From a virus (Duplodnaviria; Heunggongvirae; Uroviricota; Caudoviricetes): a stretch of DNA of 35,620 bases. Below the pieces are notes generated by a model, which saw nothing but the letters and a program-made list of their open reading frames with translations, ran no database searches and had not been told where the DNA came from. The stretch lies in IMG/VR virus record IMGVR_UViG_3300029643_000041. One strand, written 5' to 3'. The position numbers and the translations under genes were made by a program. Numbering within the stretch: the first letter of the stretch is position 1; the number at the start of each line of letters is the position of its first letter. Shown piece after piece: positions 1 through 35,535 of this stretch.

Positions 1-55
1 GGCATCAGTCTTAATTAGTGCCACTGCTTTTCTTTGATGTCCCCATTTTGTGGAG

Positions 56-99
56 CCCATCAACCCCGCCATTTCGGTTCAAGGTTGATGGGTTTTTTG
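56..99 (+). terminator. Host-side hairpin plus T-run overlapping attL
   Basis: cccatcaacc / ggttgatggg 10-bp stem with about 17-nt loop, followed by tttttt; the 3' arm and the T-run lie in the att core. Confidence 0.45.
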
Positions 100-113
100 T
101 TGCCTGAAATTTA
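88..113. repeat. attL core, 26-bp direct repeat atgggttttttgttgcctgaaattta
   Basis: Exact copy of the sequence at 34939-34964; lies just outside ogr, where P2/186 phages carry att. Confidence 0.75.
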
Positions 114-2070: not shown

Positions 2071-5000
2071 GCGTCGTATCCCCCCTGATCGCTGTAGTTA
2101 CTCCTGGCTTTTGCCTTCAGCCTGCGTTCACGTTCATCAAGCTGGCGGGCCACCTCCCGCGCAATATCCTGCGCACTTTGTCCTGGCTGTGTCTGGATGA
2201 TGATCTGCGTCGGTGCTTCAATCCGGTAAATGGGCGGCACAGTAGCTGCACGACTCACCATCGCTTCACCGCCTTTCGCGGGAAGCGCCAACGGATGCAA
2301 CGGTGGAAGCTCTGCAGGCGCGGCAGCAACGCCCATCATTCCGGCAACAACGGCAGCCAGTGCAGCTGTATTTCTCCGGCTGGTCACATTTGCCGGGCCG
2401 TTAACAATTTCCGGCCCGTTTTCACCGACGATGCCAAACTGCCCGCGCGGGATATAGCCGCCGCTGTCATACATCCCCGCAAAGCCATATCCCCATGACG
2501 GAAAACCACCCGATGGCATCATCACTTTACCGTCTGCATTCACCGTCGCAGGTTGCTGACGCGTCACGCTTTCCGGCAGTTTCGCCTTTGCAGCCTCTTT
2601 ACTGACAATGCCGAGTTTATCCAGCAACCAGGAAACGCCGGATTTCAGGGAGTCCAGCGGATGCATGACCATATTCAGCCCTTCCGCCAGTGCCTCCCCG
2701 AATCTCCGCCCCATTGCCGCTGCGCTCTGCAGTTCGGCAGAGGTCGACTTAACGGGTGTCAGCAGATCAGTAAACCAGCCCCACAGCGCCTGCACTTTGT
2801 CGCCAATCCACTGAAACACAGGCTTAAGTGGTTCGAACGCTGCACTGATGGGACCTGCCGCCGCTTTGAATCCTTCCACCACGCCACCAAGAAATGCGGT
2901 GATGGGTTGCCAGTATTTCCAGACAACCAGCGCCACGCCCGCCAGTGCAGTAACCACAAGACCTATCGGACTGAGCAGAGCGCCTAACAGACCAGATATG
3001 GCATACAGAGCAACGCGCAGCATCGCCAGCGGGCCGGATGCCAGCACTCGCAGCACCGCGCCTGCGGCTGCCAGTCCACCGCGCAGTACCGCCAGAGGAT
3101 TCATAAACATCACAGCAACAGCACGTAAAGCGGATAATCCAGACCGCAACAGTGCAACCGGCGCACCTGCTACAGTTTTCAGGACATTCCCCGTCAGTGA
3201 TGCCGTGCGGCGCAAAGACGACAACGGCGCAGTAAGTAAACCCGCTGCGTTGCCCGATGAAGCAAGCCTGCGTCGCAGCAGTGCCAGTGGAGCGCCAGCT
3301 AACCAAGACAACGCGCTGCTGGTTCGTGTTACTGCTGCCGTAACGGAAGGTAACGTTTTGATACCCAGCACAGAGAATCCCAGACGGATGACTGCCAGCG
3401 GCCCCAGCACTGCAGCCAGCGCCACCGCTAAGGTGCCGAGGCCCACGGTAACGGCAGCCACAACAGCCGCTACTTTCATCAGTGTGCCTGTCAGTTCCGG
3501 GTTAGCTTCCACCCAGCGGCGCAACGACCCCGTGATGCTTTTCACCGTGTACAGAATATCCATCAGCGGCTGGCGCAGCGTTTCGCCCAGGCTGCTGAAG
3601 GTGTTCTGCGCTCCGGTTTTGACCAGCAACCACTGAGCAGAAAGTGAGTCTTTGTTGATGTCGGATTCTTTCTGCATGGAACCGAGCGCATCATTGCCCG
3701 CTGTCAGTTTTAACTGGCGCTGCAGTTCCGGAAGGTTGTTTGCCAGTTTCGCCGCGTCATCTCCAAACTCTTTACCAAACAACATGGTCATGGCAGACAG
3801 ACGCTTATCCTGCGGCAGTGCGTTCACCTTCTCCAGCACACGCTGGATAGTTCCCATCGCATCCTTCGTCATCTGCTTTTCAATCACTTCAGGATTGAGT
3901 TTCAGCAGATTCATCCCTTCAAAGAAACTCTTGCTCTGCATGGTGGCAATGGACAATTCACGCACCATCGCGTTTGCTGCACTGGCTGCAACCTCCGGCG
4001 CAGCGCCCAGTGTCAGGAAGGTGGAACCCAGCGCCGCCGCTTTACGATAATCCAGACGGTCAGCCACACCGCCCAGACGTTGCATGACATCAATGATGTC
4101 TGCCCCTTTCGACATGGCGTTATCATCCAGATAGTTCAGCGCATCACCGAGCTGTTCAATATTGCGGGTAGGGATTTTGTAGAGCTGGGCGATTTTCCCC
4201 AGACTTTCTGACAGTTCATCCGCTGGCAGCTCAAAGGCTGTTGCAGCCTTTGCTGCCGTACTGGCGAAGGCCAGCAGGTCACGTTTCTGGTCTTCCCAGC
4301 TGTCGTCAGGATTTGCGACGTTCATGCGCGCACCACCTTCAACCAGTGCGGCAAAGTCCACAGCACCGTTTTCCATCGGCAACTGTTCGCTGGCAGCCTT
4401 GATGGCATCCTGCATTTCGTAAAAACGCGCAGTGCGGTTGCCATTATCATCACGCAGACCATTGACCTGCTTTGCCACACCTTTCATGGCATCTTCCATG
4501 CTGGTATAGCTTTTTACTGCTGCCATCACTGGCGCACCCATTGCCAGCCCTGCAGCCGTGGTAGTGGCTCCGGCTCCTGCAATGCGATCGCGCACTTCAA
4601 GCCGTCTTGAGTATTGTTCTCTGGCAGCGTTCATCCGTGCCTGTTGTTCACCCAGACGTTTAAGTGCTTTTTGCTGGCCCTCCAGTGCCTGCCTTGTTTC
4701 TTCAGCATTTTTCTTAAGTTCTCGCTGGGCACTACTGAGTTGTCTGGTATCAATCCCTGATTCTTTAAGTGCCTGACGTTGTCTCTGGACCGCCCCCAAC
4801 AAGCCGTTATAGGTCTGCTGAAGTTCCTGTACTCGTGTTTTGGCCTGACTGAATAACTTTGCCTGCGCGGCGGTTGGCCTGTTAGTGGCAGCAAATTGTG
4901 TGGCGAGTTTTGCCGCCTCTTCGCGGGCTGCGTTCAGGTTGTTGGCTGTTATGGCTAGTTGCGAGCGCGTCTTGCGAAATTCATCAATTCTGCCAGCCTG

Positions 5001-22202: not shown

Positions 22203-22886
22203 TTAAGGCATTCTATTCTCAAAAACATGCTTTATCGCAGTGGTAAAGCATCTATCTTTTACATTCTTTTTAAACTCATCAAAGACCATAGATCTAACAT
22301 CTTCAATTTCACATCCTGATTCAATAAGCTGAGATGCACATCCGACCAGTTCCTTTATTAATGTCATGCTTAATTCTATTGCACGTCTTCTTTCCGCCTT
22401 GACTCCTCCTGAGGACGGGTTTAAGTTAAATACTCTTAACGTAACCTCTGCCATTTTGTGTTCTTTCTCATTCAAGCCTTCTCTAATATGAACATCACCA
22501 TTTTCCAAAAAATGGAAAAAAACATCTGGATTTTGTCTATCAGCTTTAATTAAATCATCATCGTTATATTTTTGCTTATCCTTATAAAACCCACACCTTT
22601 GCGGCTCACCACATGAGCCAAACAAATTAGACCACTCGAAAGTTAAATTTTTGTAATAACTTTTCCTGTAAAAATGTTCAATATGCCTCTCAACTTTATT
22701 TTTGCCACCACTTTTATGATGCTCTATTTTTTTCTCGCAATAAGCACATAATTTACCTTGCATTTTTATTATTTCTTCCCATATTTCTTTTTTATCATTT
22801 GATGATAGGGAATTCCAATCATCCCTCCTATAGTCAAATTTATTAAGAACGGAAGGCCCTGGCATTTGCCTAGATAGATATTTCAT
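22203..22886 (-). CDS. HNH endonuclease, Septu PtuB-like retron effector component
   Basis: 227 aa; CAYCEKKIEHH...VERHIEHFYRK...CGEPQRC HNH/zinc motif; start overlaps the ATPase stop (ATGA); strongly AT-rich. Confidence 0.8.
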   Translation of the reverse strand: MKYLSRQMPGPSVLNKFDYRRDDWNSLSSNDKKEIWEEIIKMQGKLCAYCEKKIEHHKSGGKNKVERHIEHFYRKSYYKNLTFEWSNLFGSCGEPQRCGFYKDKQKYNDDDLIKADRQNPDVFFHFLENGDVHIREGLNEKEHKMAEVTLRVFNLNPSSGGVKAERRRAIELSMTLIKELVGCASQLIESGCEIEDVRSMVFDEFKKNVKDRCFTTAIKHVFENRMP

Positions 22887-24517
22887 TTTACATCCTTACT
22901 TCCAGAAAAGTGCTGATTTATCTTATTTTTGAACTCCAAAACAGATATAAGATCATCACACTCTTGAACTAAAGGATGGTCTAATCCGAAATGTTTAATA
23001 ACTTTTTCTCTTAACAAAAGAGCCTCGTCACTGCTATAACGATTAAGCTCAACCAATTTTTTATATTCTTCAAGCCAACCATTTTCTTTAGTAGAGGGTA
23101 TAGGATCAGTTCTCATTCCATATAAAAGTGCATCCTGATTACTAACACCTTTTATTTGATAGTCGGGGTGAGACACTATCAAATCATTAACACCATCTAC
23201 TTCCACTTCCTGTAGAATACGCACTGAACGAGAGCTAACAGTGGATAAAACCTGTGGGCTATGGGTAGTAATTACAAATTGAACATTTGGGAATGTAGAT
23301 GTCAAACGCTCAATAATTGTCTGTTGCCATTGCGGATGCAAATGCAAATCAATTTCATCAATTAAAACAATCCCATATCCCAATAGAGGATTAGATAAAT
23401 TTGGATTAAGTAAAATTAAACGTCGAGCCAAATCACCAACTAAAGTAAATATAGTTTTCTCACCTTGAGACAACTGTTGAATATCTAATTCAACCTCTCC
23501 TTTTTTAAGGATAATCTTATAATCATCATCACCATAAACAAGCTTAATCCACTGAAATTCAGGCAAGAACTTTAGAATGGTATTTATAACACTATCATAA
23601 AGTGATACTGCATTATTAAACTTATGTTCTCCTGATTGCAGAGATTTCATGTAGTTCAATTTTTCTTTAAGCGAAAGCTCTAAACCTTTTATAACTGTTG
23701 AATCAATATTATCAATCGCAGATAGTTGAGTTAATGTTGCTTTCAAACTCTGAATATCTGAAAATAACGCATTGATTGTCGTTTGTGACTCACTCAATTT
23801 CTCTTGTGAAGCTCTGTTATGAAGAAATACAAGCCATTGAAAAAAATCGGTAAAATCATTTCTGTCAAACTCGATTTCATCATACACATCGAATTTTGAC
23901 CATACAGTTTTAGTTTTAGCATTTTTTCTTTTCCTATCAACCCCACCGCCTATATAAGAACGCGCAATAGAATAATATGCCATCAAAGGCAAGCTTGCAT
24001 TATCAACATATTTATTCACAAGTCTATAAATACTTGCAAGTTTTTTTATCTCCAACAATTCATTATTTCTAGAATAATATGCCCCCTCTTTCGCTTTAGT
24101 AATCAAAATACTGGTATTAAAGTCCTTGAGTTTTATATTTGCATCAATTGATGCATACTCAACATCAACAGAGTTATTAACTTCATGGCTTTTAATATAA
24201 GTACCAGGCTTACTCTCCTTTTCAATATTTGATCTCAACCAACTCAAAACAATTGCTATTGCATCCAAAATAGTGCTTTTACCGAATCCGTTATCCCCGA
24301 CAAAAACAGTCAAATCATCTTCTAAAGAAATCTGTAGTTCTCTTATCCGTTTAAAATCATGTATACCTATTTTATTTAAATGAAACTTACTCTCATTTAA
24401 AGTAGATATTAGCTTTTGAAGCTCAACAGACTCCTTCAAATAATCCTCGTTTATCACATGTGATTCCAACTCTAAAAAATCAACATAGCAAGTCTCTAAA
24501 TTCATTTTATTTATCAT
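22883..24517 (-). CDS. P-loop ATPase, Septu PtuA-like retron effector component
   Basis: 544 aa; Walker A VFVGDNGFGKST, Walker B VLIDEIDLHLHP, then ITTHSP; translationally coupled to the RT upstream and the HNH downstream. Confidence 0.8.
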   Translation of the reverse strand: MINKMNLETCYVDFLELESHVINEDYLKESVELQKLISTLNESKFHLNKIGIHDFKRIRELQISLEDDLTVFVGDNGFGKSTILDAIAIVLSWLRSNIEKESKPGTYIKSHEVNNSVDVEYASIDANIKLKDFNTSILITKAKEGAYYSRNNELLEIKKLASIYRLVNKYVDNASLPLMAYYSIARSYIGGGVDRKRKNAKTKTVWSKFDVYDEIEFDRNDFTDFFQWLVFLHNRASQEKLSESQTTINALFSDIQSLKATLTQLSAIDNIDSTVIKGLELSLKEKLNYMKSLQSGEHKFNNAVSLYDSVINTILKFLPEFQWIKLVYGDDDYKIILKKGEVELDIQQLSQGEKTIFTLVGDLARRLILLNPNLSNPLLGYGIVLIDEIDLHLHPQWQQTIIERLTSTFPNVQFVITTHSPQVLSTVSSRSVRILQEVEVDGVNDLIVSHPDYQIKGVSNQDALLYGMRTDPIPSTKENGWLEEYKKLVELNRYSSDEALLLREKVIKHFGLDHPLVQECDDLISVLEFKNKINQHFSGSKDVK

Positions 24518-25452
24518 TATTTGTTTCCTTCCATCAGGAACTTAGTTATTAACTCACAACCATATTTTTTTTGTAACCTTAATAAAAAATCACCCTCCAA
24601 ATAATTTGCAAACGCAATCATCCCTTTGGTTTTATTTATTTCTTCGGAAGATAAGAGTCCCAAAGAATATTTATGAATCTTTGCAAACAGCATCCTTTTA
24701 CGATCGCGACCAATTGATAAATTGCCCTGAGGTGTAAGTGTTACACCAGTCACGTGCCGATTATGAGCCATCGATGTAAAAATTGTTTTAGATTCATTGA
24801 TTGATAGACCGGGAACATGGAGCGACAACATTTTTTTTACCACCTTAGGAACCCTGCACAATATATCCTTAATATTAGTTGAAAAAGTTATATCATCTGC
24901 ATACCTTGAATAAGTGATACCATTGTTACGGCACCAATCATCAAGACTCTTGTCAAAGTCATACATAACAAAATTACTAATAAATGGTGAGCTTGGCGCC
25001 CCTACACTTAATATCAACGTTGTACTTCTCTTTTTTCCCGGACGCCAAAAAAGCAAATTACGTAGGGTGTTCTCATCAAATGAATCCAATTTCAGCCCTG
25101 TGTTCTCAAGTTTCGAGAAAAATATATCAGGTTTAATTTTGTTAAAGAAGTTCTGAAAATCCATTTTAAGAATATAATTATTATCTTTATGCAACAATGC
25201 ATTATCTTTAATACTTTTTTTATATTCATATGCCATTGCCTTATGATGAACAGGCAGCTTTGGCTGTAGCAAAGATACTATAAATCTCTGTACGTTTTTT
25301 AGTTCCTTTGTCGGCTGAGCTATCACCCGAAAACCTGCGCCACGTTTAGGAATATAATAAACTTTATATTTTTTGGGGGCCTCATTTAAAAGTAATTGGA
25401 AAGCTAATCTATTATAATTAAACTTACTGATAATTTTAGAAGTTAGTTGCAT
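24517..25452 (-). CDS. Retron-type reverse transcriptase
   Basis: 311 aa; ILKMDFQNFF, SVGAPSSPFISNF, YSRYADDITF (YxDD box) and the retron-typical VTG triplet (HNRHVTGVTL); AGAGGGG Shine-Dalgarno before the ATG; preceded by a structured non-coding region. Confidence 0.85.
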   Translation of the reverse strand: MQLTSKIISKFNYNRLAFQLLLNEAPKKYKVYYIPKRGAGFRVIAQPTKELKNVQRFIVSLLQPKLPVHHKAMAYEYKKSIKDNALLHKDNNYILKMDFQNFFNKIKPDIFFSKLENTGLKLDSFDENTLRNLLFWRPGKKRSTTLILSVGAPSSPFISNFVMYDFDKSLDDWCRNNGITYSRYADDITFSTNIKDILCRVPKVVKKMLSLHVPGLSINESKTIFTSMAHNRHVTGVTLTPQGNLSIGRDRKRMLFAKIHKYSLGLLSSEEINKTKGMIAFANYLEGDFLLRLQKKYGCELITKFLMEGNK

Positions 25453-32148: not shown

Positions 32149-32370
32149 CTAATTAAGGTTTAGATTGCATTCTGAAAGCGCATCAACGGTCATGGCTGCT
32201 ATGTTGATCATCACTTTTTCGCGTTTTTTATCTTTACGCAAACGGTGACGGATAAGGCGTCCATCAGCCAACATGTCATTGATGGTATCGATGGACAGTC
32301 CTGTCAGCTCGCTATAGCGTTCAATAGTCACATGAGGCGTGGTAAGAGTGATTGAAATGTTAGGTCTCAT
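32149..32370 (-). CDS. apl: Apl/Cox-like excisionase and switch regulator
   Basis: 73 aa HTH protein, first gene of the lytic operon, divergent from cI. Confidence 0.75.
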
Positions 32371-32414: not shown

Positions 32415-32454
32415 GGATCGTTTGTATTTTGTGAACACCATAAACATACGATCG
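32415..32454. promoter_or_regulatory. Candidate immunity-switch operator palindrome between apl and cI
   Basis: ggatcgtttgtatttt-gtgaacacc-ataaacatacgatcg, an imperfect inverted repeat centred in the 119-bp switch region. Confidence 0.4.
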
Positions 32455-32495
32455 CATCATGAAATCGTCAAGATAAAAGTTCACTTGGAGTGACC

Positions 32496-33065
32496 ATGAA
32501 TTTGGAGAAAGGCGGACGAGGCGCTATAGAGCGCATGGTAGAAGCTTATGGATTCAAAACTCGACAGGCGTTGTGCGATCATTTAGGAATCTCTAAAAGT
32601 ACACTCGCTACACGCTACATGCGTGACTCATTCCCAGCAGAATGGGTAATCCAGTGCGCCCTTGAAACGGGCACCTCGCTTAATTGGCTCACAACTGGAC
32701 ATGGTTCAAAGCAAACTTCAGGTAATACAAATACGATGGAAGTTGCTAAGTATGTATTATCTGATGGTGCCTTGCGTGAAGACGGTTTTTATATTTTTGA
32801 TAAGGGATTTCTACCCTCTACGTTTAAAAAACCTTTTGTCATCACAGATAACAATTCTGAATTTATTTGTGATAAAGAATTTGATGATATACGTGATGGT
32901 AAATGGGTAATAAGTATTGATGGCGAAATAACAATCCGCGACATTACTCGTTTACCCGGTGGAAGAATCTTCGTTGAAGGTGGAAACAGATCCTTCGAGT
33001 GCAAGATAGAAGATGTTGAAATAATTGGAAAAATTATAAGTTTAACAATTAAGTACGTTAGGTAA
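32496..33065 (+). CDS. cI: CI immunity repressor (186 CI-like)
   Basis: 189 aa from the ATG preceded by GGAG; N-terminal HTH (ERMVEAYGFKTRQALCDHLGISKSTLATRY), position upstream of int. Confidence 0.8.
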   Translation: MNLEKGGRGAIERMVEAYGFKTRQALCDHLGISKSTLATRYMRDSFPAEWVIQCALETGTSLNWLTTGHGSKQTSGNTNTMEVAKYVLSDGALREDGFYIFDKGFLPSTFKKPFVITDNNSEFICDKEFDDIRDGKWVISIDGEITIRDITRLPGGRIFVEGGNRSFECKIEDVEIIGKIISLTIKYVR

Positions 33066-33080
33066 TACCGGGAGTAAACT

Positions 33081-33272
33081 ATGCTTGGTAAGGTATTTTT
33101 TGTGGTTTTATCATGCTCTTTGTTATTAAACCCACTAACTACCTATGCTAAAAATTATCCTTGTTCTGGGAAAAAGGGAGGTGTCTCTCACTGTACCTCC
33201 GATGGAAAGTTCGTTTGCAATGATGGAACCATTAGTAAATCAAAAAAAATCTGTACTAAAAACTCGCGATAA
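33081..33272 (+). CDS. Small secreted cysteine-containing basic peptide (candidate moron)
   Basis: 63 aa; signal peptide [23 protein letters not shown], then a mature part with four Cys and many Lys; AT-rich; between cI and int. Confidence 0.5.
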
Positions 33273-33458
33273 TTTTTGCTTTTATATCTGCGCCTAATAT
33301 AACAATGAGCCGCAGGCTAACCGCAAAAGTCACATACTCACATAGCAAAAAATAGCCAACTTCATTATGGCTTCAGTGAGATGTATGGTCGCAAGATTTC
33401 ATACATTGACACTGGTTATACATACAGTAAAAATGCTCTCTATTGGAGGGCATTTTTT

Positions 33459-34490
33459 ATGGCAGTACGAAAACTCACCACAGGAAAATGGCTTTGCGAA
33501 TGTTACCCCGCCGGACGTAGTGGGCGTCGTGTGCGTAAACAATTCGCCACCAAAGGCGAAGCACTGGCTTTTGAGCGTCACACGATGGAAGAAACCGAAG
33601 CAAAGCCCTGGCTGGGCGAATCAGTAGATCGTCGAACCCTGAAAGACGTGGTTGAGCTATGGTTCAAACTACATGGTAAATCTCTGACTGCTGGGCAGCA
33701 TGTCTATGACAAATTGCTGCTGATGGTTGACGCTCTGGGCAATCCCCTTGCAACCGATCTCACATCTAAAATGTTTGCCCATTATCGAGATAAACGACTG
33801 ACAGGTGAGATCTACTTCAGCGAGAAATGGAAGAAAGGGGCCAGCCCGGTCACCATTAACCTGGAGCAAAGCTATCTAAGTAGTGTTTTTAGCGAACTAT
33901 CCCGCCTGGGCGAATGGTCGTATCCAAACCCACTGGAGAACATGCGAAAATTCACCATCGCAGAAAAAGAGATGGCATGGCTTACCCATGAGCAGATTGT
34001 TGAACTGCTGGATGATTGCAAACGTCAGGACCCAATTCTGGCACTGGTAGTCAAGATATGCTTAAGCACAGGCGCACGCTGGCGAGAAGCAATAAACCTT
34101 ACCCGCTCACAGGTGACCAAATACCGAATTACCTTTGTCAGAACGAAGGGGAAGAAAAACAGAAGCATCCCTATCAGTAAAGAGCTTTACGAAGAGATCA
34201 TGGCGCTCGATGGGTTCAATTTCTTCACAGACTGCTATTTTCAATTTTTATCCGTGATGGAAAAAACGTCTATCGTGCTCCCTCGCGGTCAACTGACACA
34301 CGTTCTGCGCCATACGTTTGCGGCGCATTTTATGATGTCGGGTGGAAATATCCTTGCTTTGCAAAAAATCCTCGGACATCACGACATAAAAATGACTATG
34401 CGTTACGCACATCTAGCACCGGATCACCTGGAAACTGCATTACGGTTTAATCCGCTGGCAACACTACCAACATCAATAGCAAGTTTTTGA
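33459..34490 (+). CDS. int: Tyrosine integrase
   Basis: Start at MAVRKLTTGKW (P2 Int begins MAIKKL); C-terminal HVLRHTFAAHFMMSGGNILALQKILGHHDIKMTMRYAHL catalytic region. The track ORF begins 26 codons upstream. Confidence 0.9.
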   Translation: MAVRKLTTGKWLCECYPAGRSGRRVRKQFATKGEALAFERHTMEETEAKPWLGESVDRRTLKDVVELWFKLHGKSLTAGQHVYDKLLLMVDALGNPLATDLTSKMFAHYRDKRLTGEIYFSEKWKKGASPVTINLEQSYLSSVFSELSRLGEWSYPNPLENMRKFTIAEKEMAWLTHEQIVELLDDCKRQDPILALVVKICLSTGARWREAINLTRSQVTKYRITFVRTKGKKNRSIPISKELYEEIMALDGFNFFTDCYFQFLSVMEKTSIVLPRGQLTHVLRHTFAAHFMMSGGNILALQKILGHHDIKMTMRYAHLAPDHLETALRFNPLATLPTSIASF

Positions 34491-34548: not shown

Positions 34549-34818
34549 ATGAATAAGTTTCAGCATCAGGGAGCGGAATTGCGCAACAGAGCCAAAGAAT
34601 TGGCTTTATCCGTACTTAAAACTCACCCAGATGCCCAAAAAAACGGCAACGGCGTTAAGCAAGCTGAGGTATTTCGTCTAAGCGGCCTCGATTGGGGAGA
34701 AAAACGGAAAGCCACAAGTTCGAACCAACAATATTGGGTTGTTGCACTATTGCGTGAACTAGAAGAGGAGGGGTTAGTCGAACAGATTGAAGATAGGGGC
34801 CCATGGCGTCTAAGGTAA
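34549..34818 (+). CDS. Hypothetical protein between int and the att arm site (possible winged-helix DNA-binding protein)
   Basis: 89 aa ORF ending 5 nt before the arm-type repeat; no family assigned. Confidence 0.45.
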   Translation: MNKFQHQGAELRNRAKELALSVLKTHPDAQKNGNGVKQAEVFRLSGLDWGEKRKATSSNQQYWVVALLRELEEEGLVEQIEDRGPWRLR

Positions 34819-34938: not shown

Positions 34939-34964
34939 ATGGGTTTTTTGTTGCCTGAAATTTA
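34939..34964. repeat. attR core, 26-bp direct repeat
   Basis: Exact copy of 88-113; lies downstream of int and is followed 5 bp later by the stop codon of a host TetR-family gene. Confidence 0.75.
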
Positions 34965-34968
34965 TCTA

Positions 34969-35535
34969 CTACCCAGCAATCCTCTCAACCATCCTCAAAA
35001 TCTCCTCGCGTGATAGCGGCTTACGGTCGGTGACAAAATGCAGCGTCATTCCCTCAATAAACGCATCAAGCGCGCGGGCGGTTCCGGGTTCAAACCATTG
35101 TTCGAGCGTTTGTTGACTGCGCTGCATCCAGTTTTGCATTACCGTTTTTAAGAGCGGTTTTCGGCTAGCCAGCGCGTAGAGCTGGTACATCAGCTCCATA
35201 TTATCCGGCGTTGCGACCTGTGAGCTGTAGATCATATCGGTGATAGCCTGGCATGCGCCTGGAGCATCACTAACATCGCTAAAAAATGCCTGATATTGCC
35301 GGGACATGATCTCAGTAAAACGGCTGAACGCCTCCAGCAACAACTCATCAATTCCTGAAAAATAGTAGGTCATCGATCCCAACGGCACCCCGGCAAGGGT
35401 AGCAATTGTGCGGTGTGTAACAGCATGTATTCCGTAAAGTTTCACCGCCTCCAGCGTGGCCTGGATAATTTTTTCTCGCCGTTGCGGATCGTTAGCGCGA
35501 CGCATGTCATTTCCTCTCTCTGCAATTGTGTACAA
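34969..35535 (-). CDS. Host TetR-family transcriptional regulator
   Basis: 188 aa; N-terminal TetR HTH ([37 protein letters not shown]); lies outside attR. Confidence 0.85.

Follow-up and report, generated by a model that had tools for sequence, protein, structure and literature searches.

A YdcA-family gene between cI and int of a P2/186-like Escherichia coli prophage, encoding a predicted basic, disulfide-rich periplasmic mini-protein

YdcA of Escherichia coli K-12 (b1419; NF007462/PRK10040; PF27300) has been described as a protein of predicted periplasmic location and unknown function (bioRxiv 10.1101/2024.02.12.579971). The phenotypes reported for this chromosomal homologue concern only organic-acid sensitivity (PMC7642389), not DNA. 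The ORF described here was found in a stretch of 35,620 nt (IMG/VR record IMGVR_UViG_3300029643_000041), which is analysed at its full length and referred to below as the window. It resembles K-12 ydcA in encoding a precursor of about 57–63 aa with a Sec signal peptide and one domain, and this domain has four Cys and the motif PCSGxKGG[IV]SHC...GKFVCNDG[ST]ISxSKKxC in both proteins. On the other hand, the K-12 gene is chromosomal and lies by rydC/cybB, whereas the window copy is prophage-borne and placed directly behind cI; about 9 of the 32 core residues are not the same in the two, and the window copy belongs to a separate equivalog, NF007463.

A second close counterpart is a 60-aa ORF of the same YdcA family in the P2-like Haemophilus phages HP2 and S2 (NC_003315 complement 2407..2589; L001 2920..3102), which starts at the cI stop codon, on the same strand and upstream of int, so that the order cI, YdcA-like gene, int is the same as in the window. 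Unlike the window ORF, it is unannotated in the phage records, and HP2 has in addition a secreted OB-fold (tRNA_anti-like) gene, orf1(S), between the 60-aa ORF and int. The HP2 cI is about 31–36% identical to the cI of the L178 and L254–L271 lineages, a comparison that concerns these lineages and not the cI of the window. A search of the HP2 literature found nothing on the unannotated 60-aa ORF.

Only one solved structure, that of Legionella Dis2 (Lpg0823), was retrieved both by the family profile and by the AF2 model of the ORF product. Dis2 is Sec-exported, disulfide-rich and periplasmic, as predicted for the ORF product, and each of its lobes carries C-x-K-x-GG[IV]-x-x-C ... G-x-x-VCN[DN]G-x-x-S. 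However, Dis2 has two lobes and five disulfides, is not basic, and is a stoichiometric subunit of the T4SS outer-membrane cap (PMC8486379), whereas the ORF product has its four Cys in one domain, and T4SS genes are lacking in the window; in lobes, in disulfides and in the link to a Dot/Icm system, the ORF product differs from such a subunit. Dis2 is located under the outer membrane, where it touches the lipoproteins DotC, DotD and DotK (PMC8486379; PMC12716638), and it binds proteins and not DNA, while being dispensable for T4SS assembly (PMC12716638). Both papers (PMC8486379, PMC12716638) describe Dis2 as species-specific and without structural relatives, and YdcA is mentioned in neither of them.

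In phage 186, cI directly abuts int with no gene between them, and the 186 record gives pL and pE as driving one operon, cI-int-orf69, with a terminator after orf69 and before attP. Morons and lysogenic-conversion genes, the latter being the class suggested in the preliminary description, offer another comparison; examples are lambda bor/lom, phi80 cor, T5 llp and P2 old/tin/fun. Like them, the ORF is a small accessory gene of deviant base composition, absent from close relatives, at a site that would be transcribed in the lysogen and with a product bound for the envelope, these last two being predictions for the ORF. In contrast to morons, neither a promoter nor a terminator was predicted for the gene itself, which by its position would ride on the cI-int mRNA, its predicted product is neither a lipoprotein nor a beta-barrel, and deeply diverged P2-like phages keep it in one and the same slot, an uncommon trait among morons. 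Accessory status and deviant GC are therefore shared with morons, and an own promoter with terminator is not; this lack, together with the tight gaps to cI here and to int in relatives, points to an operon passenger.

The window comprises nearly the whole of a P2/186-like prophage of E. coli. Its right end is 99.6% identical to many E. coli chromosomes, where the prophage adjoins rcdA/ybjJ. The immunity region has the layout of phage 186, the minus strand carrying cII, fil and the apl-position gene (Table 1). An 89-aa ORF after int was considered as the counterpart of 186 Orf69 and dropped, since the two proteins are not similar. Rfam gave no match in or near the YdcA-like ORF.

Table 1 Features of the window around the YdcA-like ORF and at the prophage ends
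Feature	Position	Strand	Remarks
RybB sRNA	23..101		
26-bp direct repeat ATGGGTTTTTTGTTGCCTGAAATTTA	88..113 and 34939..34964		
apl/cox-position gene	32149..32370	-	Divergent; placed with respect to cI and CII as its phage 186 counterpart is
pR/pL switch region	between apl/cox-position gene and cI		
pR-like TTGACG-17-TATGTT	32471..32443	-	
cI repressor gene	32496..33065	+	Phage_CI_repr E 2.8e-33, Phage_CI_C E 1.1e-28 (Pfam); PGAP annotation of identical loci
cI stop codon	33063-33065	+	
Shine-Dalgarno GGGAG	33070..33074	+	6 nt 5' of ATG; read from the sequence
YdcA-like ORF, 63 aa	33081..33272	+	ATG 15 nt past the cI stop
Signal peptide, codons 1-23	33081..33149	+	Predicted signal peptidase I cut after Ala23; hydropathy, family conservation
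Mature 40-aa YdcA-family domain	33150..33269	+	All four Cys invariant and predicted to form two disulfides; basic net charge
Stop codon TAA of the ORF	33270..33272	+	
AT-rich spacer, ORF to int, 186 nt	33273..33458	+	
Promoter-like TTGACA-17-AAAAAT in the spacer before int	33406..33434		
Tyrosine integrase gene int	33459..34490	+	Int_N E 2.8e-32, Phage_integrase E 4.3e-22 (Pfam)
89-aa ORF	3' of int	+	
Host gene rcdA	34969..35535		3' of the second repeat copy

The ORF is almost certainly a real, translated gene of the YdcA family. Its product passed the NCBIfam model NF007463 (PRK10040.1-2) with 116.1 bits against a cutoff of 93, ORF residues 5–63 being aligned with positions 1–58 of the 58 in the profile, and it matched phrog_6000 (PHROG 6000) with an E-value of 4.6e-34 and 117 bits (residues 3–59 against positions 1–56 of 56). 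PF27300 was precomputed for the protein's own 90%-identity cluster, the representative of which, P0001, is 97% identical. The identical protein is present on at least 1000 contigs in the protein collection and as RefSeq WP_001321204.1, which is named "YdcA family protein" in recent PGAP annotations. A profile search of 1.84 billion representatives gave 437 family clusters at 50% identity, and a second family search gave 1319 clusters at 90% identity. Thus, the gene, the protein family and the phage family (PHROG) are all catalogued, and the object itself is already known. The preliminary description of this DNA had presented the product as a peptide of no known kind, which does not hold, as it belongs to a catalogued family; this family also has chromosomal copies, such as K-12 ydcA, and is therefore not phage-specific.

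Searches of the literature for WP_001321204, PF27300 and phrog_6000 found no work on them, with "YdcA family" mentioned only in passing, and found no phenotype data for the prophage YdcA-like gene. A local Pfam scan of the ORF, against a copy that lacks PF27300, gave only GULLO2-like_3rd at a sub-threshold E-value of 0.07, which is meaningless. A resemblance to DUF3761 in the CxDG[ST]xSxS / GGV motifs raised the idea of a circular permutation of that domain, which was dropped because it found no support when members with one YdcA domain and with tandem domains were scanned against Pfam.

In the 32 codons of the core, 7–10 synonymous and 0–1 non-synonymous changes separate other prophage alleles from that of the window, and omega (dN/dS) is at most 0.03 across the prophage alleles. 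Two enterobacterial lineages, with cI 36–44% and int about 53% identical to those of the window, gave pS values of 0.79–0.95 (saturated) against the window ORF at a pN of 0.05, and 35 of 38 mature residues are unchanged in comparison with a diverged lineage whose cI is 44% identical to that of the window. In L178/L262-type lineages, the signal peptide is unrelated to that of the window, while the mature part is nearly identical. The mature part also stays near-invariant from Enterobacterales to Moraxella, Neisseria, Comamonas and Rhizobium. Such codon and residue comparisons confirm the ORF as a genuine gene under strong purifying selection. Lack of conservation in related prophages, part of the outcome that the preliminary description named as speaking against its proposal, is clearly not the case.

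The hydrophobic core of the signal peptide covers about residues 4–15, with 9-residue Kyte-Doolittle means of 1.9–2.7, and the n-region contains Lys4. Ala23 is invariant in the family alignment, whereas the remaining signal peptide is not conserved; this invariance is as expected for position -1 where signal peptidase I cuts. Hydropathy and the invariant Ala23 therefore agree with the signal peptide that had been proposed earlier, and the product is very probably exported by Sec and cleaved by signal peptidase I. The mature part was computed as 40 aa (4.26 kDa, pI 9.6) with 4 Cys, 8 Lys, 1 Arg and 2 Asp, close to the roughly 40 residues, four Cys and about ten Lys/Arg first described. A fifth Cys, C12, is part of the signal peptide and shows no conservation. 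Two alignments, with 23 and 100 members, have C28, C38, C46 and C58 invariant, and in them P27, S29, G30, K32, G33, G34, F44, G49, S52, S54 and K55 are either invariant or at least 90% conserved. The ORF product has the family motif PCSGxKGG ... FxCxDG[ST]xSxSK ... C, and its AlphaFold model is a small beta-hairpin knot with a pLDDT of 81 over the mature part.

The GC content is 35.4% in the ORF, 37.1% in the gap downstream of it, 39.6% in cI and 50.6% in the window. The AT-rich patch in which the ORF had been placed is therefore real (35.4% against 50.6%), but it is not specific to the ORF; as the low-GC patch includes cI, it marks the whole module of cI and the ORF. Some E. coli prophages pair the window-type cI and ORF with a different int, and others pair the window-type int with a different repressor, the homology starting at about 33400; cI and the ORF evidently recombine and travel as one module.

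No terminator was predicted on the plus strand on either side of the ORF, and no promoter-like site was seen upstream of it, within the 3' end of cI. In comparison with 186, about 390 bp are inserted between cI and int in the window, and tblastn found no homologue of the ORF in P2 or 186. That the ORF is accessory rather than a core phage function, as first suggested, is borne out by the direct junction of cI and int in 186 and by this tblastn result. Its place within the lysogenic cI-int operon, also suggested at first, agrees by position with the 15-nt gap, the lack of a predicted terminator and the pL/pE layout of 186, and co-transcription with cI in the lysogen is likely. In two relatives the spacing is even tighter: the YdcA-like gene of L262 ends 2 nt before int and that of L178 overlaps int, so that in these the gene must be an operon member. 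Apart from HP2 and S2, the order cI, YdcA-like gene, int was found in Yersinia alsatica, Y. aldovae and Y. nurmii, and in two further enterobacterial P2-like lineages from IMG/VR. The absence from 186 and the recurrence of this order make a lysogen-expressed accessory gene a well-supported reading of the ORF. The arrangement, including the HP2/S2 ORF, was not found in the literature searched, and we regard it as a lead and not as a result.

The slot between cI and int holds other cargo in some relatives. In one of them, the YdcA-like gene is followed by a gene for a KAP-family NTPase, which matched the PADLOC candidate defence family PDC-S20 with an E-value of 2e-171. Another has a 308-aa repressor with a 323-aa protein encoded after it, and in a third the YdcA-like gene is preceded by one for a secreted protein of 144 aa.

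A family-wide operon partner was looked for and not found, as the immediate neighbours in about 76 species-level loci belonged to 76 Pfam families; the ones that recurred were just cI/int and cybB, each at 4 loci. The clues to function come from fused and adjacent domains, from Dis2 and from the chromosomal homologue. Of the 52 family representatives longer than 110 aa, 3 had Endonuclease_NS as a fusion partner, 1 had SNase, 1 had a PLD-like domain such as is known from Nuc endonucleases, and 1 had VasL. The nuclease fusions start with the signal peptide, the YdcA domain and a linker, and end with the C-terminal domain. In two unrelated genomes, L085 and L054, a separate secreted SNase gene is located directly 3' of the YdcA-like gene, and in HP2 and Moraxella caviae a secreted tRNA_anti-like OB-fold gene follows it. 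A 150-aa gene 3' of the YdcA-like gene in Mcat17 was considered as the same partner as in M. caviae, to which it is not similar. Nuclease fusion or adjacency concerns a minority, with about 5 of 149 further representatives (150 listed) and 2–3 of the approximately 76 loci. Nevertheless, three unrelated nuclease folds and an OB fold beside the same domain are hard to ascribe to chance.

By sequence, the sole relative in the PDB was chain AN of 7MUC/7MUD, which is Dis2. With the signal peptide included, the single sequence gave an E-value of 3e-5 and the profile one of 2e-5, and this rose to 0.004–0.01 once signal peptides were left out. Dis2 was also the top Foldseek match (probability 0.94, TM 0.65, 38% identity), all others having a probability of 0.10 or lower, and a fragment of a Dis2 orthologue carries PF27300. 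Homology of the YdcA domain to Dis2 is thus probable but marginal. Neither the association with nucleases and OB folds nor the link to Dis2 was found in the literature searched; both are leads rather than results.

We explain the ORF as a prophage-borne paralogue of the small periplasmic YdcA that would work as a binding module, and we give a probability of about one half to the binding-module mechanism as well as to the explanation as a whole. It would be the second cistron of a cI-ORF-int transcript, driven by pL in the lysogen and by pE at establishment in analogy to 186, and translated from its own GGGAG ribosome-binding site. After Sec export and cleavage by signal peptidase I behind Ala23, oxidation in the periplasm would yield a basic (pI 9.6) mini-domain of 40 residues with two disulfides. 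Such a mini-protein may be a stand-alone copy, stoichiometric in the periplasm, of a compact binding module. Elsewhere this module occurs together with secreted nucleases and OB-fold proteins, by fusion or as a neighbour, and both lobes of Dis2 are probably made of it. The lysogen would gain a trait at the level of the envelope, such as the handling of incoming or extracellular DNA or stress tolerance.

The ligand of the module would be conserved and probably polyanionic. Near-invariance across hosts suggests that the ligand is universal and not a phage or receptor protein with which the module would co-evolve, and the basic charge together with the nuclease and OB-fold partners points to nucleic acid or another polyanion. 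Nucleic acid is our first guess, and a tentative one. The relationship to Dis2 points instead to lipoprotein complexes beneath the outer membrane, and the second guesses would be the outer membrane, on its inner face, or peptidoglycan-associated lipoproteins. Several points count against the idea: the nuclease link concerns a minority of the family, Dis2 binds proteins, and the phenotypes of chromosomal ydcA do not concern DNA. The DNA of an infecting phage is normally not exposed to the periplasm, and therefore a DNA-binding protein there is no obvious exclusion device. A wider version of the idea is a long shot: the YdcA domain would be a minimal (about 35 aa, two-disulfide) periplasmic or extracellular module for binding nucleic acid or polyanions, of which P2-like phages keep a stand-alone copy between repressor and integrase as a constitutive envelope barrier or handling factor for foreign DNA arriving by transformation, conjugation or phage entry, and the lobes of Dis2 would be derived from it. 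If true, temperate phages would have a periplasmic DNA-binding module, and the interest of the locus would rise considerably. What stands out at present is the extreme purifying selection on a gene that keeps its place between cI and int while the repressors of P2-like phages have diverged to 31–44% identity, and the repeated joining of its domain to secreted nucleases, with its probable use in building the Dot/Icm subunit Dis2.

Some of the same evidence can be read in favour of a protein-protein adaptor like Dis2, docking from the periplasm on outer-membrane complexes of lipoproteins and OmpA-like proteins (receptor, secretin or T4SS-type) and thereby altering or blocking an envelope machine, for example by superinfection exclusion at penetration or by interference with conjugation. 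The sole structural relative, Dis2, has two such lobes and contacts DotK (OmpA-like), DotC and DotD; the gene is placed in the lysogenic operon, and the slot in one relative carries a candidate defence gene. However, the domain is almost invariant across very different hosts, whereas exclusion proteins aimed at a particular receptor or phage part usually diversify. The name "conjugal transfer protein", given to some copies in UniRef, has no support from context, as T4SS genes are lacking in the window and near most family loci, and we rejected it; the PADLOC-DB defence HMMs gave no family for the ORF product at E <= 0.01. We consider such an adaptor unlikely. It is unlikely, too, that the ORF acts as a stress-tolerance factor which duplicates the chromosomal YdcA and adds a constitutive dose against acid, organic-acid or stationary-phase stress, although several observations on ydcA agree with it. 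E. coli W became sensitive to 300 mM 3-hydroxypropionate when ydcA was deleted (PMC7642389), ydcA is induced at pH 5 under YdcI (as cited in PMC7642389), a list of RpoS constitutive promoters includes its promoter region (PMC5493296), and it is up in a persister-enriched growth phase (bioRxiv 10.1101/310961); moreover, the prophage protein has the whole core motif of K-12 YdcA. On the other hand, the phenotype is that of the chromosomal ydcA in a single study, without a mechanism, and NCBIfam keeps two equivalogs, the prophage protein scoring 68 bits against the NF007462 cutoff of 118.

The remaining readings are harder to reconcile with the data than the binding module that we prefer. A product that is small, basic, Cys-rich and, by prediction, secreted could be taken as a cationic disulfide-rich toxin or bacteriocin-like peptide harming competitors or the host, as the preliminary description had in part proposed, and the PDB search gave weak sequence matches (E 0.07–2) to Pin-II proteinase inhibitors of plants and to class A repeats of the LDL receptor. 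These matches are not significant and absent from the fold search, and they were judged to be driven by composition. A toxin is very unlikely, as no gene for immunity, processing or export is adjacent, a Sec signal alone would lead to the producer's own periplasm, K-12 carries the chromosomal paralogue harmlessly, and the domain builds larger periplasmic proteins, being the N-terminal module of enzymes and also found in tandem repeats. Lipidation at Cys12, which would make the product an outer-membrane exclusion lipoprotein of the Cor/Llp type, might be suggested by the sequence V-L-S before C12 in the N-terminal hydrophobic stretch and by the source name "lipoprotein" of one Yersinia homologue. 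The usual lipobox is [LVI][ASTVI][GAS]C, with which the Leu at -2 does not fit, and a Cys at position 12 leaves only 11 signal residues, so that no lipobox follows an adequate signal peptide here. Most homologues lack C12, even those in which a different signal peptide precedes a near-identical mature part, but Ala23 never varies; a lipoprotein is thus highly improbable. Finally, the ORF is short and AT-rich, as would be a chance ORF or a decaying passenger without function. This reading is hardly tenable and, as judged by the selection analysis, already refuted, with dN/dS at or below 0.03 and synonymous sites saturated over deep divergence; a score above the cutoff of a curated family model and the hundreds of clusters at 50% and 90% identity (437 and 1319) also argue against it.

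Outside the slot between cI and int, members of the family occupy varied positions. In Moraxella siphophages, the YdcA-like gene comes after the tail chaperone gene T, and in Acinetobacter phages it comes after an antirepressor gene. Others were found on plasmids of Acinetobacter, Psychrobacter and Rhizobium, and on the chromosomes of many Proteobacteria, among them K-12 ydcA. The module of cI, the ORF and int was present in 592 of 5426 complete E. coli genomes (about 11%), and AS19, a laboratory derivative of E. coli B, is among the strains that carry WP_001321204.1.

The prophage (about 34.9 kb) is inserted in the 3′ end of rybB, which its integration rebuilds, since the left copy of a 26-bp direct repeat overlaps the 3′ end of this sRNA gene and the second copy immediately precedes rcdA. 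The features identified in the window are listed below, together with the nucleases found beside or fused to the YdcA domain elsewhere.

Features of the prophage and YdcA-associated nucleases in other sequences
Feature	Position or entry	Strand	Details
RybB sRNA	23..101		left edge; Rfam RF00110, 105 bits
26-bp direct repeat ATGGGTTTTTTGTTGCCTGAAATTTA	88..113 and 34939..34964		two copies, in rybB 3′ end and ahead of rcdA
Three-gene block	22203..25452	-	between portal-like gene and replication gene A homologue
Promoter-like TTGACA-17-AAAAAT	33406..33434	+	10/12 matches; ~25 nt 5′ of int start
89-aa ORF	34549..34818	+	3′ of int, within prophage
YdcA with secreted nuclease, fused or adjacent	proteins P0213, P0160, P0122, P0203; loci L052, L085 4213..4902, L054		

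The promoter-like site upstream of int falls in a stretch that is common to prophages of another immunity type, with homology starting from ~33400, which suggests that int may have an additional, separate promoter of its own. On the other side of int, the 89-aa ORF (WP_001032044.1) is kept in prophages with different immunity regions and had no match in Pfam. It occupies the place equivalent to that of Orf69, the last gene in the lysogenic operon of phage 186, but shows no similarity to it.

As for the contents of the cI-int slot in related prophages, that of E. coli 19KM2415N (NZ_CP151042; L006 3255..4586) carries, 3′ of the YdcA-like gene, a gene for a 443-aa KAP-family P-loop NTPase. This protein matched the candidate defence family PDC-S20 in PADLOC (E 2.4e-171), with PifA and QatA as weaker matches. 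In one genome, that of E. coli 17MR471 (NZ_CP051158 4680097..4682469; matches H43/H98), the match to the cI-YdcA-int module was split in two by an insertion of the IS30-family element ISApl1.

Away from this slot, the stretch between the portal-like gene and the gene A homologue is the classical P2 cargo hotspot. In PADLOC, the three genes of the block found there gave matches to RT_I-A (E 5e-131), to ATPase_I-A/PtuA (E 8e-152 and 1e-193) and to HNH_I-A/PtuB (E 4e-57 and 1.5e-117). The block is a predicted prophage-borne type I-A retron defence system, recognised here from its protein genes. An Rfam scan of the same interval at the gathering threshold gave no match.

Fused to or adjoining the YdcA domain were secreted nucleases belonging to three folds that are unrelated to one another, namely Endonuclease_NS, SNase and PLD-like; one of the SNases additionally carries an Ada Zn-binding domain. 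A three-gene block is the only cargo of the 5.4 kb Psychrobacter plasmid pA40P1, which has Rep/Mob functions (L168 2399..4091); it consists of a lipoprotein gene, a YdcA-like gene and a gene whose 319-aa product had no match in Pfam. Published work treats the Legionella protein Dis2 (Lpg0823) as a species-specific protein that has no structural relatives (PMC8486379, PMC12716638). Here, Dis2 (PDB 7MUC/7MUD chain AN; proteins P0322-P0324) appears to be made up of two diverged YdcA-like (PF27300) repeats.
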